Shown in pieces: positions 10,393 to 61,428 of a DNA stretch of 64,000 nucleotides (positions are counted from its first letter, which is position 1; the number at the start of each line of letters is the position of its first letter). The translations under genes were made by a program, and so were the position numbers. Below the pieces are notes generated by a model. That model did no database searches. It saw only the letters and a program-made list of their open reading frames with translations, and had not been told where the DNA came from. The DNA is from Octopus vulgaris (lineage: Eukaryota), in contig OX597815.1 in assembly GCA_951406725.2 (NCBI GenBank), forward strand, positions 170,066,001-170,130,000, written 5' to 3'.

Positions 10393-10976
10393 AGGTAGCG
10401 AGCTGGCAGAAACGTTAGCACGCCGGGGGAAATGCGTAGTCGTATTACGTCTGCTGTTACGTTCTGAGTTCAAATTCCGCCGAGGTCGACTTTGCCTTTC
10501 ATCCTTTCGGGGTCGATTAAACAGCACCCATTACGCACTGGGGTAGATATAATCGACTTAATCCGTTTGCCTGTCCTTGTTTGTCCTATCTGTGTTTAGC
10601 CCCTTGTGGGTAGTAAAGAAATAGCTATTTCGTCTGCCGCTACGTTCTGAGTTCAAATTCCGCCAAGGTCGATTTTGCCTTTCATCCTTTCGGGGTCGAC
10701 AAATTAAGTACCAGTTACGCACTGGTATCGATATAATCGACTTAATCCGTTTGTCCGTTCTTGTTCGTCCCTTCTGTGCTTAGCCTCTTGTGGGTAGTAA
10801 AGAAATAGGTATTTCGTCTTTCTTTATGATTCTGAGTTCAAATTCCGCCGAGGTTGACTTTGCCTTTCGTCATTCGGAGTCGATAAATTAAGTACCAGTT
10901 GCAAACTGGGTCAATCTAATCGACTGCCCCATCTATTCGCCAAATTTCGGTCTTTGTGTCTAGAGTAGAAAAGAAT
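10393..10976 (+). mobile_element. Trimeric SINE family A with 14-bp TSD
   Basis: One head followed by three bodies about 183 bp apart; ATATATTTTGTCGA duplicated at 10379-10392 and 10977-10990. Confidence 0.88.
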
Positions 10977-39953: not shown

Positions 39954-40818
39954 AGTCAATGGGCAGACAGAAACAAAATGCAACTGAATAGGGAAAATTT
40001 GAGCTGATGCATTTTGGAAGAAATTCCTCACTAAAACAACCATACTCTCTTCCTTCAGGGGAACCGCTCACAGCCTCTAACAATATCAGAGACCTGGGTG
40101 TAATTGTTGATGACGATCTCAGTTGGAGTGCACACATCAACAAGAAGGTCGATACAGCTATGAGTTCCTGGATCTTAAGAACTTTCCGGTCCAGAGAACA
40201 AGGTGTCATCATACCACTTTTTCATCCTTTGTACGGCCACACCTTGAATACTGCTGCCCACTGTGGTCTCCTCACACAAGACAAAACATCTCCAGAATTG
40301 AGTCACCCCAGAGGGCTCTCACTAAACAAATTGAAATCATGGCTGCTCTCGACTATTGGGATCGCCTTAAAGCCTTGAAACTTTACTCCCTCCAGCGTCG
40401 CCGTGAGCGGTACATCATTTGTACGATGTGGAAAATATACCGCCAACTTTGCCCAAACGACCTAAACATTAGCTTCAAGGTTCATCCGAGACTTGGACCA
40501 CGGGCTATACGTCCCCTGCCAAATTCAAGATCACAACATACATGTACACTGCAACATAATTTCTTTTCCTCATATTTAACATTGTCCCGAGGGAGATCAA
40601 AGAGGAAAAGGATCCCATCAACTAAACAGAGTCTGGATAGATTCCTTCAAAGAATACCAGACAAGCCACCCATAATTGGATACAACTCACCCAACAAGAA
40701 CTCACACTTGAACAAAACTTGACTTAAACAGGATTCGAATAATCCTATCAGGTGGTGCTATTAAGTTAGACATGGCCTGGACCAATCTCTGGTCGAAACA
40801 TATCTAAGTTTTATCTAA

Positions 40819-43980: not shown

Positions 43981-45012
43981 ATAAGTACGAAGGAGCAATC
44001 AAATTTGCGGAGATTTCAGATTAAACAAGTATGATTTATTTTCTGTGAGGAAAGAATTATTTCCGCTTTCGCTGCTGAATCATCTGGATTTGATTATTTC
44101 ACCCGAACGTTAAAGAGAATACACATACTATTTTATGAATAGTCCAGTTCTATACATAAGACACGCTCTAATAAATTGTTTACACAATTAATCTTATATA
44201 CGTAGTGTATCTGTTTGAATAATCGGTACAATTATATTTACACCCATATGTAAATAAGTTGAGCTTGACGCAAACCCGCTGAGGTTATTCGATCCTTGAC
44301 CAAGGAAAACCGAAAATAATTGGTCAATCGAATCGAGCTTTCTTCCATTTCTGTTGAGAACCATCAGTTTTGACTACAGGCAATATTTTTACCGTTTACA
44401 TAGTATATCTAGAACAGAATTTGAAGGAACTCTACCCCCTCAAAACAGAAAGTTTAAAATCGTTATATATTAATAAAATTACTTTTAGAACTATGAGCAC
44501 TTAGGGAGAAACATATAGACAAACAACATTTACTCAAATACTTTTTTGAACATCAAATCACAAGAGAGAAAACTGTCTATACTAACAGAGCCATGACATA
44601 TCTGACTAATAAACACAAAATTACAAATGAAAACATAAAAATGACCAGCCTAAACTTATGACCTACCAACATTCTTTGGTGAAATAAAGTTGATACACCT
44701 AATTACTAAGGGTTTAAATACTGGACTTTGTAACTTTGACCATTATATTGTCAAAGTAAAAGGATTAAATCCAATGATACTAAAAGCAACAAAATTACTG
44801 TCAGACCTTGTGCATACATAGCAAAAGAGAACATTTTCATGTTTGTTTACACAGTTCTATATGCATGAGTAAATTCTAGACAATAACAACCCTAAATTTA
44901 ATCAATAAAAAATTTCGAAAACACCTTTCCATAACAACTCACTAGCAAAAACCTAATCATCTTTCCACTCAAAGCCATACATCTAAAGATGAGTTTAACG
45001 CAACAGAGTGTA

Positions 45013-45408
45013 CATTATGTACATTATTTACATTTGGCGGATATTTGTTCTCATCTTGTTTGTTGTTAACACAACGTTTCGGCTGATATACCCTCCAGCC
45101 TTCATGAGGTGCCTTGGGGAAATTTCGAACCTGGGTTCTCATTCCTAAGGTATTTTTCGTTGTTGTTGTTGTTGTTATTATTATTATAATTATTCACGTC
45201 ACTTATAATAACACCAAGAACAACATCGAAAAATACCATACGAATGAGAAACCGGGTCGAAATTTCCCCAAGGCACCTGATAAAGCCTGGAGTGTATATA
45301 AGCTGAAACGTTGTGTTAACAACAAACTAGATAAGGACAAATATCCGCCAAATGTAAATAATGTAAATAACGTACATTACTCCTCATCCCTTAAATATAG
45401 AACTGTGT
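45013..45408. mobile_element. Inverted pair of Penelope-like pLTR ends (same family as 28482-29385), 12-bp TSD
   Basis: CAACAGAGTGTA at 45001-45012 and 45409-45420; the arms are reverse complements, with HHR motifs at 45068-45113 (-) and 45272-45317 (+). Confidence 0.88.
45068..45113 (-). ncRNA. Minimal hammerhead motif with core mutation (CTCATGA)
   Basis: Reverse complement: GGCAC-CTCATGA-AGGCTG-GAGGGTATAT-CAGCC-GAAA-CG-TT-GTGTT. The mirror copy at 45272-45317 has CTGATAA; the two-copy consensus is the canonical CTGATGA. Confidence 0.7.
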
Positions 45409-46014: not shown

Positions 46015-46588
46015 TAAAATTTTGGTTTAAAAGTTAGCAAGTTTCATGGAGTGGGCAAGACGATTACATCGACTGCAATGCTAAACTGGTAATTATCGAT
46101 CCCAAAATGATGAAAGGTAAAGTCGACCTCGGCAGAATTTAAATTCAGAACGCATGGACAGATAAAATACCTTTTTTTTTTTGCTACCCACAAGGGGCTA
46201 AACATAGAGTGGACAAACAAGGACAGATAAACGGATTAAGTCGATTACATCGACTGCAATGCGTAACTGGTACTTATTTTATCGACCCCGAAAGGATGAA
46301 AGGCGAAGTCGACCTCGACGGAATTTGAACTCAGAACGAAGCGGCAGACGAAATACCTATTTCTTTACTACCCACAGGGGGCTAAACACAGAGTGGACAA
46401 ACAAGGACAGATAAACGGATTAAGTCGATTACATCGACTGCAATACGTAACTGGTACTTATTTTATCGACCCCGAAAGGATGAAAGGCAAAGTCGACCTC
46501 GACGGAATTTGAACTCAGAACGAAGCGGCAGACGAAATACCGCTTAGTATTTCGCCCGGCGTGCTAACGATTCTGCCAGCTCGTCGCC
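46015..46588 (-). mobile_element. Trimeric SINE family A
   Basis: Head at 46588 (reverse complement GGCGACGAGCTGGCAGAATCG); bodies repeat about every 184 bp. Confidence 0.88.
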
Positions 46589-46868
46589 TTTAGGAGACCT
46601 TATACTGATTAGTGTTGTTGACATTGTAATAACTTAGGTGTTAATCCATGATTTATTATACATATAGAAAGGGCATGAGGATACAGAAAAAATATCGATA
46701 TAAGAACCTCAAAATAAATATAAGAGAGTGGTCACTATATTGATCACTCTAGCACCAGTTAATCCAAAAGGTTTCAACCACGAAAAATACATGTTTCCCA
46801 TGAAAGCCAGTACGACTGTTAGCTCACACGGACAGGGCAAATAAAAAATAACAAAAATACAGATTATT

Positions 46869-46944
46869 TTGGGACAATTGTTTCGCTATTAATGAATTAA
46901 ATGTAATATTACTTACAATAATCCATTTGTAGCTCTTCAGCCAA
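46869..46944 (-). ncRNA. Type I hammerhead ribozyme (534-nt unit, inverted copy)
   Basis: Exact reverse complement of 47401-47476. Confidence 0.85.
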
Positions 46945-47400
46945 GACTATCTGGATGAAATCCACTCAATCACACGCCAGATTTTACCATAACGATAAAT
47001 ACGCGTGCGGTTCAATTGATTACATCGGACGTTATAATTCAAATGCCCCAACCAACAGCGCGCCAAACTCTCACGGAAAACAAATACAGCATTTAGAAAT
47101 AAATGCAGCATAATTATAATTAATTAATAAGGGTGAGAGAATTAGATACTAATTTAATAGTATATTTATTCCACACCAAGTGGCCTAGTGCTACGAGAAA
47201 CCTGGATTATTATAATATTTTATAACATATTATAATATTTTCACAAAATAAATATAAGAGAGTGGTCACTATATTGATCAGGCGCGCTGTTGGTTGGGGC
47301 ATTTGAATTATAACGTCCGATGTAATCAATTGAACCGCACGCGTATTTATCGTTATGGTAAAATCTGGCGTGTGATTGAGTGGATTTCATCCAGATAGTC

Positions 47401-47476
47401 TTGGCTGAAGAGCTACAAATGGATTATTGTAAGTAATATTACATTTAATTCATTAATAGCGAAACAATTGTCCCAA
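47401..47476 (+). ncRNA. Type I hammerhead ribozyme, intact core
   Basis: TTGG-CTGAAGA-GCTA[extended hairpin]TAGC-GAAA-CAATTG-TC-CCAA. Predicted cleavage after C47472; palindromic stem III. Confidence 0.88.
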
Positions 47477-47934
47477 AATAATCTGTATTTTTGTTATTTT
47501 TTATTTGCCCTGTCCGTGTGAGCTAACAGTCGTACTGGCTTTCATGGGAAACATGTATTTTTCGTGGTTGAAACCTTTTGGATTAACTGGTGCTAGAGTG
47601 ATCAATATAGTGACCACTCTCTTATATTTATTTTGTGAAAATATTATAATATGTTATAAAATATTATAATAATCCAGGTTTCTCGTAGCACTAGGCCACT
47701 TGGTGTGGAATAAATATACTATTAAATTAGTATCTAATTCTCTCACCCTTATTAATTAATTATAATTATGCTGCATTTATTTCTAAATGCTGTATTTGTT
47801 TTCCGTGAGAGTTTGGCGCGCTGTTGGTTGGGGCATTTGAATTATAACGTCCGATGTAATCAATTGAACCGCACGCGTATTTATCGTTATGGTAAAATCT
47901 GGCGTGTGATTGAGTGGATTTCATCCAGATAGTC

Positions 47935-48010
47935 TTGGCTGAAGAGCTACAAATGGATTATTGTAAGTAATATTACATTTAATTCATTAATAGCGAAACA
48001 ATTGTCCCAA
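47935..48010 (+). ncRNA. Type I hammerhead ribozyme, intact core (tandem copy)
   Basis: Identical to 47401-47476, 534 nt downstream; predicted cleavage after C48006. Confidence 0.88.
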
Positions 48011-48796
48011 AATAATCTGTATTTTTGTTATTTTTTATTTGCCCTGTCCGTGTGAGCTAACAGTCGTACTGGCTTTCATGGGAAACATGTATTTTTCGTG
48101 GTTGAAACCTTTTGGATTAACTGGTGCTAGAGTGATCAATATAGTGACCACTCTCTTATATTTATTTTGTGAAAATATTATAATATGTTATAAAATATTA
48201 TAATAATCCAGGTTTCTCGTAGCACTAGGCCACTTGGTGTGGAATAAATATACTATTAAATTAGTATCTAATTCTCTCACCCTTATTAATTAATTAGATA
48301 TAAGAACCTCCATATTTGTGAGTGGAAAAATAATCTCTGTCCTACAATTTGAAGAATTAACCAAAATTAAATTAAAGTTAGGATGATTATTTTCGAATTT
48401 ACTTACAGTTCAACTTTTTAATCGTTTCTAAAAGCTTCTTCTTGTAATTTAACTTGCAAAAGTAATTTTAAAATTTATAGAAGAATTATACAACATACAT
48501 ATATACAGGTATATGTGTGTGTGAGATTTTGTGTCTAAGGGTGTATGTGTGAGTGTCTGTGTATGTGTTTGTATGTGCTTATTATGTATGTGTTTGATTA
48601 TGATTGTCTGTAAAAGTTTATACGCATGTATTTTCGCGCGTGCCAGTATGCATATATACACAGTCTCATGCGTACTCGCACATATATGCATGCATACATG
48701 TAAACATAGACACACATATATATACATGCGTATATATGCACATATTTGCATTTATATATGAACATATATTTGAATATATATTTGAATATATATATG

Positions 48797-49499: not shown

Positions 49500-49560
<61 letters not shown>

Positions 49561-49563
<3 letters not shown>

Positions 49564-49976
49564 CAATTTGATTTGTTTACATATTTCTCGATAAATTTTG
49601 TGCGTTAGACAATATACCAGAAATCCCTAGTTTTGTCGGGACGTTCTGAGTCTGCGCAGTGATCTGATTAGTTAGAGAGAGCAAATCATTAGAAGCACAT
49701 GCTTCTAGTGAATTAGGATCTCAGAACAACAGGGCTCTTACCGATGAATTCTCCCTGAGCAAATAAATTATCTTTATTGCTGAAAAGAACGAAACTGCAG
49801 TCTAAGAGGAACCGAGTTAGTAAATGTTTTTATCTTCATTTCACTAAATTTATCTAGCTTCTGTGTTTCTAGCACATATTTCGCCTTAATGTACTGATAT
49901 ATGAAAAATATATGGCTTGTGCTAGAAATACCAGCGATAATAATTAATGTTATTTTATCGCAATTTGACTTGTTTA
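49561..49976 (+). mobile_element. Retrozyme-like 397-bp unit (1.05 copies) inside (TA)n
   Basis: TCGCAATTTGA at 49561 and 49958; homologous to 60175-60705; HHR at 49735-49808. Confidence 0.85.
49735..49808 (+). ncRNA. Type I hammerhead motif (core CCGATGA, one substitution)
   Basis: CTCTTA-CCGATGA-ATTCT[hairpin]AGAAC-GAAA-CTGCAG-TC-TAAGAG. Confidence 0.75.
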
Positions 49977-50076
<100 letters not shown>

Positions 50077-60174: not shown

Positions 60175-60178
<4 letters not shown>

Positions 60179-60705
60179 TAAATTTATCCAGCTTCTGTGT
60201 TCCTAGCACATATTTCGCCTTAATGTACTGATATATGGAAAATATATGGCTTGTGTTAGAAATACCAGCGATTTAATTATTTTTATTTTATCGCAATTTG
60301 ATTTGTTTACATATTTCTCGATAAATTTGGAGCGCTAGACGATATACCAGAAATCCCTAGTTTTGTCGGGACGTTCGGAGTCTGCGCAGTGATCTGATTA
60401 GTTAGAGAGAGTGAATCATTAGAAGCACATGCTTCTAATGAGTTAGGATCTCAGAAAAACAGGGCTCTCACTGACGAATTCTCCCTGAGCAAATAAATTA
60501 TCTTTATTGCTGAAAAGAAAGAAACTGCAGTCTGAGAATAACCGAGTTAGTAAACGTTTTTATCTTCATTTCACTAAATTTATCCAGCTTCTGTGTTCCT
60601 AGCACATATTTCGCCTTAATGTACTGATATATGGAAAATATATGGCTTGTGTTAGAAATACCAGCGATTTAATTATTTTTATTTTATCGCAATTTGATTT
60701 GTTTA
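60175..60705 (+). mobile_element. Retrozyme-like 396-bp unit (1.34 copies) inside (TA)n
   Basis: TCACTAAATTTATCCAGC at 60175 and 60571; same 3' end as the 49561 copy. Confidence 0.87.
60466..60537 (+). ncRNA. Type I hammerhead ribozyme motif, canonical core
   Basis: TCTCA-CTGACGA-ATTCT[hairpin]AGAAA-GAAA-CTGCAG-TC-TGAGA; the first pair of stem II is mismatched. Confidence 0.8.
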
Positions 60706-61428
60706 TATATATATATATATATATGCATACTAATACAAGACTTATACGCATACTTATACAAGGATTATTAGACGCCTCACTCGTATCACTATCGAACCAA
60801 GAGTTCAACTACGGTCTATCTATAGCACTTACTTAGCGTTACCTGCCACTCTTTTGGGTCTTCTAGATATCAATAGCTCTCATATATGTATGTATTACGT
60901 GTGTTTATATTATCAAATCTATGTGAATTGAAAGTTGAAGTATTCAGGATGAGAACATCTTTCACTCCTTGGCGATATATGCAATATTTTTTAAATGTTT
61001 TGAATTTCTAATATTTTATCAAAAGTATATAGAATCTTTTTGATTTGTTTTAGAATAAAATCAGGAGGGGATGTTTATGAAAATATAGAATAGCTTGGTT
61101 TATACATATGCTGTTTACACAGACTTATGATAAAATTATTACTAGCAAAATCAATAAACCGCATATGTTCTTAATCAATCTCGTCTAGCGCATTCTTCCC
61201 TTGACATTTACTGAATATTTGTTTAAACACTAAAACTTAAAGTTCTGCTAATGGAATTGTGTGTTAATAAAGCATGACAGTAATGCGTTATTGATGTGTT
61301 GATCTTTTCTAGGATTGATACTGGGCGTATTTGACACAAACTCTGTATCTCCAGCATGTGAAAGCTTATTGGAAAACTCCCAGAATTTTTATACTCCAAC
61401 ATTCTTGACGGTATACTTTTATATATAA

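Follow-up and report, generated by a model that had tools for sequence, protein, structure and literature searches.

The window, the whole 64,000-nt stretch of Octopus vulgaris DNA analysed here, was repeat-rich and contained 22 reading frames of at least 130 aa, none of which resembled a host gene by eye, a LINE-like fragment apart. A 202-aa frame at 40114-40722 resembled the C-terminal portion of a reverse transcriptase (RT) of LINE type. A 184-bp repeat, possibly a tandemly inserting short element, was present in 2.6 tandem copies at both 46057-46541 and 10442-10925, the former lying 155 bp to the left of the target site duplication (TSD) described below, and a MITE-like inverted repeat with 123-nt arms, 90% complementary and 122 nt apart, occupied 45009-45376.

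The 14-bp sequence GATATAAGAACCTC occurred exactly twice in the 64-kb window, at 46697-46710 and 48297-48310, with the match extending in neither direction, and these two TSD copies enclosed an inverted insertion of a 534-nt unit, numbered here from window position 47281. The plus-strand arm (47281-48296, 1,016 bp) had a perfect periodicity of 534 and covered 1.9 units (unit 1-534 followed by 1-482), and the minus-strand arm (46711-47280, 570 bp, or 571 bp from 46710 when the C common to the TSD is counted) was an exact reverse complement of unit 319-534 followed by 1-354/355. The two arms abutted head to head at 47280/47281 in a blunt junction with no gap, overlap or added bases. The outer end of the inverted arm was of the type termed short end B (unit ~353) and that of the direct arm long end A (unit 482-484); the ~131 nt between B and A, termed the tail and bounded by ends that are fixed across insertions, were present at this insertion end only (48168-48296, plus strand). 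The GC content of the element was 33% and its longest stop-to-stop frame was 69 aa, hence it is noncoding. The first-pass annotation, made from the letters of the window, had given the TSD and the mismatch-free arms of 570 and 1,016 bp exactly to the base; its statement that the element has no ORF was confirmed, as was a 180-nt gap between the arms in unit coordinates (179-180 nt, unit 356-534, when both arms are set on one linear RNA).

Three type I hammerheads, found intact as had been claimed, were identified by motif and fold at 46862-46954 (minus strand; core C3 at 46940, predicted cut after 46873), 47391-47483 (plus strand; core at 47405, predicted cut after GUC at 47472) and 47925-48017 (plus strand; core at 47939, predicted cut after 48006). 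At each, the CTGAAGA core was followed by helix II, GAAA, C-AATT-G and TC, and the second copy displayed an extended helix I with an internal loop, CUGAAGA, a 4-bp helix II base with a long extension, and GAAA. The two plus-strand cuts would release a 534-nt monomer (47473-48006, plus strand), the candidate circle. Helix III, of 2 bp with an AAUU cap, lay within the 8-nt palindrome ACAAUUGU; structure prediction for the domain recovered helices I and II but not III, and self-duplexing of the palindrome, with a predicted energy of -7.8 kcal/mol, would provide a dimer-type helix III. Animal type I hammerheads that work as dimers have such a helix III arrangement (PMC4209133). The 534-nt monomer was predicted to fold far better than shuffled sequences (z -7.4 as a linear molecule, 0/100 shuffles; -6.9 as a circle). 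Across the whole window no Rfam family matched at the gathering score, and within 46600-48400 a search with E values up to 10 recovered no hammerhead family and three chance-level matches to non-hammerhead families; since there was no library match, the ribozyme was called from motif, fold and covariation.

Given these features, the window element is a very young insertion of a known element class, the non-LTR retrozyme, and insertions across the family support its first reading as a young, dispersed, noncoding type I hammerhead retrozyme with Penelope-type insertion marks. In one assembly, from which all genomic counts were taken, 855 exact long-end/(TA) junctions (control, 0) indicated at least 855 insertions, and exact hammerhead-core 16-mers numbered 764 (control, 2); at least 245 unit matches in the 2.8-Gb genome came from 40 of 826 candidates. 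Head-to-tail arrays were found on many contigs, with arms of up to ~13 units. The unit is thus not confined to a single locus and copies are dispersed genome-wide as anticipated, while the variable permutation expected of them was not seen, the outer ends being fixed at two unit positions. TA runs flanked nearly all insertions, making (TA)n the normal target; the window copy and one other (L068) were off-target, with clean TSDs of 14 and 15 bp, respectively. What is distinctive in the window copy is this off-target site, which is why its TSD is unique and readable. For detailed comparison, 90 insertions were assembled from the 39 best-matching loci, the window copy and 50 junctions on contig C1. 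The C1 set, the less biased sample, comprised 72 long-end junctions, 50 analysed as sequence, of which 11 ran beyond the stretch examined, one already among the sequences analysed, and 21 as coordinates only; its insertions were shorter and older than the top-identity set, with identity of ~84-100% and many arms below one unit. The unit was also found in contigs of run X16 (676 contigs), coded as a different organism, and the family is therefore not confined to one species label. One direct insertion (L042:4571-5638) was exactly two units long (1,068 bp, unit 485 to 484), either by chance or as a full two-round product.

Across the family, outer ends fell at unit 482-484 (A) or 351-356 (B). 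Among the 40 top-identity insertions, 30 were inverted head to head, nine were direct (six ending at A and three at B) and one was cut by a contig end (L048, left out of the end count); the inversion noted in the window, read initially as a mark of Penelope-like element (PLE) insertion, was upheld as such, and it is a property of the family rather than of this copy. In 28 of the 30 inverted insertions A was paired with B, A/A and B/B pairs were absent, and the remaining two had one off-site end each, a shortened A end in L038 and an end at unit 107 in L065. In the C1 set, which was chosen by the A end, the B motif lay at the far end of 24 of 25 complete inverted insertions, L129 being the exception. 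C1 coordinates alone, a count overlapping those 25 insertions, yielded 29 mixed and no same-type pairs from 70 A and 64 B ends (p 2e-9). Inversion junctions overlapped by at least 2 nt in 16 of 22 gap-free cases, compared with 18% expected, and added bases occurred at 8 of the 30. Two insertions on different contigs and with different arm lengths (L040 and L162) had the same junction coordinates (unit 269 and 164), and further inner ends recurred at unit 412, 428-429, 437 and 529-530, which suggests preferred stop or joining points.

We compared these marks with those of PLEs, in which a 30-40-bp tail is often found on just one end of the insertion (PMC8557442, PMC3846280). The genome encoded an intact 781-aa ORF with RT and GIY-YIG domains, in many copies 95-100% identical. 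The young ~5.2-kb PLE carrying this ORF (L100-L116, e.g., L103:1244-6460) had a 504-bp pLTR preceded by repeated CCAAT- and CRE-like boxes, a (TA)n target and a 40-nt tail, a 479-aa frame that overlaps the ORF from upstream and has no convincing counterpart in Pfam, and a hammerhead-like motif in which U3 and A8 replace C3 and G8. Judged by motif only, it has, ahead of the nuclease, the cysteine motif characteristic of Neptune- and Nematis-type elements (PMC8557442). Its exact ends comprised 531 short and 107 tailed; in the pairing set, where 85% of ends were short, 100 short and 18 tailed ends gave six mixed and no same-type pairs (p 3e-4). The retrozyme and the young PLE are therefore alike in (TA)n target and mixed-end rule, and the retrozyme displays the PLE marks of two internal start sites, a tail at one end and an inverted 5' arm, although its 131-nt tail is three times that of the candidate partner. 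No pLTR homologous to the unit was detected by BLAST and profile searches of 58 of the 148 listed GIY-YIG loci (6,136 candidates at first look), hence the partner PLE is assigned by shared insertion marks only. The strict A/B pairing points to a polar two-site priming step that may be common to the retrozyme and this intact PLE; the fixed ends are genomic evidence that the two target strands would be primed at different sites.

Attachment of the unit to a coding PLE was also considered. A tblastn survey of 89 loci and the window found RT-like matches near only three loci (L053, the closest, L068 and L069), so the unit is not always accompanied by a coding element, and an autonomous PLE with the unit as its pLTR was rejected since no attached RT-GIY-YIG ORF was found in the same survey. 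The PLE fragment that lies next to a related hammerhead in L053 was likewise dismissed as an autonomous parent: it is a separate insertion, and genome-wide matches resolved into two unjoined families. More hammerhead motifs with palindromic helix III, often with a long helix II, lay near PLE loci (L073, L077, L078, L103, L108 and L112) and apparently belong to several more families.

To determine how arrays arise, we scrutinized variants within and between the 55 of 90 insertions in which at least 100 columns were covered three times. Substitution sites were array-wide (72, of which 27 were private to one insertion) or singletons (62, excluding the noisy units of L043 and L069), with only four partly shared within an array. 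Median divergence across 60 multi-unit insertions, representing 38 haplotypes, was 0.08% within and 1.1% between insertions, and in the C1 subset 0.16% and 3.5%, respectively. The two arms of inverted insertions agreed at 179 of 192 polymorphic sites, and fully so in 28 of 38 informative insertions, where ~1 was expected by chance; in most of the 10 that differed, the discrepancy was a single base or an alignment gap confined to one short arm. In L058, two diagnostic variants were present in all six copies of one arm and in neither case in the other, so that its arms come from two haplotypes and two templates are sometimes used. Clonal arrays therefore imply a bottleneck of one monomer at insertion, and they constitute genomic evidence that arrays are probably born whole from that monomer. 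Such clonality is proof of a monomer bottleneck, not of a covalent RNA circle. Rolling reverse transcription on a circle is, as a hypothesis, the best explanation of the bottleneck, and this agrees with the initial preference for rolling copying as the better account of the multimer, clonal arrays being best explained by repeated copying of one monomer.

Array-wide A>G changes exceeded singleton A>G changes (16/72 versus 3/62, p 0.005). A-to-I editing of the template was nevertheless rejected as unsupported: the direction of change is unpolarised and array-wide G>A was equally common (15). Private changes showed no preference for either strand (A>G 5, T>C 6), and the A>G variant at 271, dominant in runs X1 and X3, was a genomic allele in five arrays.

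If uncleaved linear multimers were instead internally primed, as in autonomous PLEs, and unequal crossover or gene conversion later lengthened and homogenised the insertions, one would expect many partial variants, and only four were observed against 72 array-wide sites. A toy simulation, crude and with gene conversion not in the model, agreed: the ratio of partial to array-wide variants was 0 under a monomer bottleneck and at least 6.6 under linear copying with local duplication, compared with 0.06 observed, and linear multimer copying produced many partial variants with or without local duplication. Moreover, variants were common to inverted arms, also in arrays of two to four units, only three singleton sites recurred between insertions, and long-end arms did not stop at the second priming site (see below). 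Amplification after insertion, towards which a 2026 preprint leans (bioRxiv 10.64898/2026.07.22.740005), is thus already disfavoured for this family, and we regard the combined account of linear multimers and later amplification as decidedly unlikely. Inverted repeats trouble assemblers, and the noisy units at L043 and L069 could hint that clonality or inversions were products of assembly or polishing. Clean TSDs at the two off-target sites, locus-private array-wide variants with singletons preserved, strict pairing of long with short ends in two unrelated families, and junction microhomology all speak against an artefact, which we consider to have almost no likelihood.

The form of the template was examined at the inner ends and at the cut site. 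Inner ends lay within 5 nt of the cut site in only 2 of 142 cases (p 0.79), and truncation of a cleaved linear monomer at the cut was not supported, since inner ends do not gather there. Most arms ran through the cut site (38/60 A arms and 38/54 B arms), and 282 unit copies crossed it with no deleted base. In LINE-1 twin priming, two target nicks prime cDNAs and an inversion joined by microhomology results within one TSD; here, by comparison, priming appears to start at two set positions within the unit, each arm can be longer than a single template, and the site of second priming does not halt the first arm. A linear version of twin priming was not supported on this last point, since long-end arms stopping near B (4/60, p=0.26) were at chance level. 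The same count removes the basis for the 3.3-unit template proposed for the window copy, which needs linear twin priming and is unnecessary because one unit suffices on a circle. Inner ends at unit 193-206, just downstream of the cut site, were in weak excess (8/142, p 0.03, for an interval chosen after the data were seen) and may reflect some cleaved linear templates. The head-to-tail joint was crossed by a contig of run X1, RNA by guess, and also by contigs of the DNA-like run X15, hence the former has no bearing on circles.

A bottleneck at the RNA level could also occur with no rolling reverse transcription, through a clonal multimer that a host polymerase makes from a circle and the PLE then copies linearly, or through exact end-to-end jumps on a linear monomer. 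This account predicts equal clonality and the same hammerhead selection, fits the weak excess at 193-206 if a cleaved monomer is copied, and has a precedent in that RNA-RNA replication was raised as a possibility for mussel retrozymes (PMC7229834). End-to-end jumps, however, predict errors or stops at the cut site, where none was seen in 282 crossings and two in 142 inner ends, and rolling RNA replication needs an antisense intermediate, while no hammerhead-like motif occurred on the opposite strand of the 534-nt unit. On balance we judge copying of this kind unlikely, though it retains some weight. Two published observations weigh against a cleaved, polar template as favoured here: with the Anolis PLE in vitro, cleavage by the hammerhead proved dispensable, the principal substrate was unprocessed RNA and no difference in start site between strands was seen (PMC11167929), and among Xenopus retrozyme dimers only one of nine was cleaved in vitro (bioRxiv 10.64898/2026.07.22.740005).

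To infer whether the ribozyme matters for mobility, we inspected its variants. The catalytic core was unchanged in 69 of 70 insertions and altered in one, and the free core position N7 varied in 23 of 70. Array-wide variants broke predicted pairs less often than singletons did (19/73 versus 29/65, p 0.03). In a sister family with a 537-nt unit, the core was kept and both strands of helix I were changed. Judged from these substitution patterns, the hammerhead is under selection in lineages that move. Tandem arrays can shed unit-length DNA circles, and if a one-unit extrachromosomal circle were recombined out and transcribed round, with the PLE inserting the clonal RNA and the hammerhead a mere passenger, clonal arrays and intact cut-site junctions would be predicted too. 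Such a circle leaves unexplained both a catalytic core that is invariant while N7 varies and the compensatory changes to helix I of the sister family, and we rate it very improbable.

Taken together, the data make it likely that the family is a non-autonomous retrozyme mobilised by a PLE RT-GIY-YIG protein via a monomeric, most likely circular, RNA. Repeated rounds of copying on a ligated monomer would account for the clonality, the inner ends, the intact cut-site crossings and the selection on the hammerhead alike. In the proposed route, a genomic array would be transcribed into a multimer in which neighbouring hammerheads pair via the palindrome and cleave after GUC, giving 534-nt monomers that a host ligase would circularise; the cleavage and circularisation step draws on the sequence and on published animal retrozymes. 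The 2-bp helix III would be weak in a lone monomer and the circle therefore stable. The PLE protein, as the putative enzyme, would nick an AT-rich target, usually (TA)n, on both strands at positions ~14-15 bp apart, in keeping with the observed TSDs and targets. One nick would prime at unit ~484 and the other at ~353, the positions at which ends are fixed and paired. Reverse transcription would then round the template, arms ranging in observed length from <0.1 to ~13 units and being clonal. When both cDNAs extend, their ends would join by short microhomology to leave a head-to-head inversion with one long and one short end, and when only one extends a direct insertion would result. The protein of the Anolis PLE nicks and extends both strands and is modelled as a dimer, with two internal RNA start sites bounding the tail (PMC11167929). 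We are evenly divided on the fuller proposal that a ribozyme-made RNA circle is rolled by a PLE dimer with non-equivalent subunits, each strand having its fixed site, that this polarity is obligatory for PLEs in general, and that arrays are born in one event.

On all features that could be assessed, the 534-nt family would be classed as a non-LTR retrozyme. It shares with metazoan members of that class (Cervera and de la Pena 2020, PMC7229834; Li, Clavereau and Pollet, bioRxiv 10.64898/2026.07.22.740005) noncoding tandem units, a type I hammerhead, a short palindromic helix III, GC below 50%, a TSD of >4 bp, a strongly self-paired monomer and co-occurrence with PLEs. Although the unit had been thought longer than known animal retrozymes, and does exceed the 170-400 nt of PMC7229834, the family consensus lengths of 51-972 bp in the preprint span 534 nt. 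The fixed two-site ends, inverted arms, (TA)n targeting and per-insertion clonality found here are not features given in the available text of either source. In Xenopus, 24 of 57 retrozyme families match annotated elements, nearly all PLEs (PMC7229834 / bioRxiv 10.64898/2026.07.22.740005), whereas here no homologous pLTR was found. A plant-type LTR retrozyme, with a type III hammerhead in two LTRs and a 4-bp TSD, was rejected given the type I hammerhead, tandem units and 14-bp TSD.

Compared with endonuclease PLEs, for which tails of 30-40 nt are described (PMC11167929, PMC8557442, PMC3846280), the retrozyme has a tail of ~131, no ORF and arms of up to 13 units. The one-end rule of PLEs is worded as "often" or "optionally" in the available descriptions, whereas same-type pairs here numbered 0 in 29 for the retrozyme and 0 in 6 for the PLE. 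Chlamys elements such as MRC1 are also noncoding PLE parasites and often head-to-tail multicopies (PMC8557442). However, MRC1-type elements share 3' sequence with autonomous partners and most Chlamys elements lack hammerheads (PMC8557442), whereas the hammerhead of the unit here is conserved and no homology to a partner was detected. Synthesis of tandem cDNA from a retrozyme circle by a PLE enzyme has been proposed rather than shown (PMC7229834, 2020; PMC7761336), and the origin of PLE tandem and inverted structures was described as still undefined (PMC8557442). In the literature consulted, mainly open-access main texts, we found no cephalopod retrozyme, per-insertion clonality or strict end pairing, and supplements may bear on the first of these.

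The retrozyme class is not new; what the family gives is genomic evidence on two open mechanistic points. With hundreds of young, near-identical insertions, questions of template and priming can be read from sequence, and the 534-nt RNA and the 781-aa RT-endonuclease form a ready in vitro pair, offering a direct test of how RNA circles and PLEs jump. If the proposal is true, there is a natural route from a small circle to a multimeric, site-directed DNA insertion, the one-end tail marks an obligatory polarity of PLE integration generally, and arrays were not grown afterwards.

The sister retrozyme family (L053:5960-6610 and L178-L185) was clearly homologous to the 534-nt unit. It had compensatory changes in helix I, a U-U pair at the helix II base and U4C in several copies; its ends were homologous, ~105 nt apart, and mixed in three of the four inverted copies read. 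A different hammerhead family, with a unit of ~397 nt and a palindromic CTGCAG helix III, was represented in the window by two copies 93% alike (49559-49985 and 60175-60710; cores at 49741 and 60471). Both copies, of 1.07 and 1.35 units, lay between TA runs and had the same end position in the unit.
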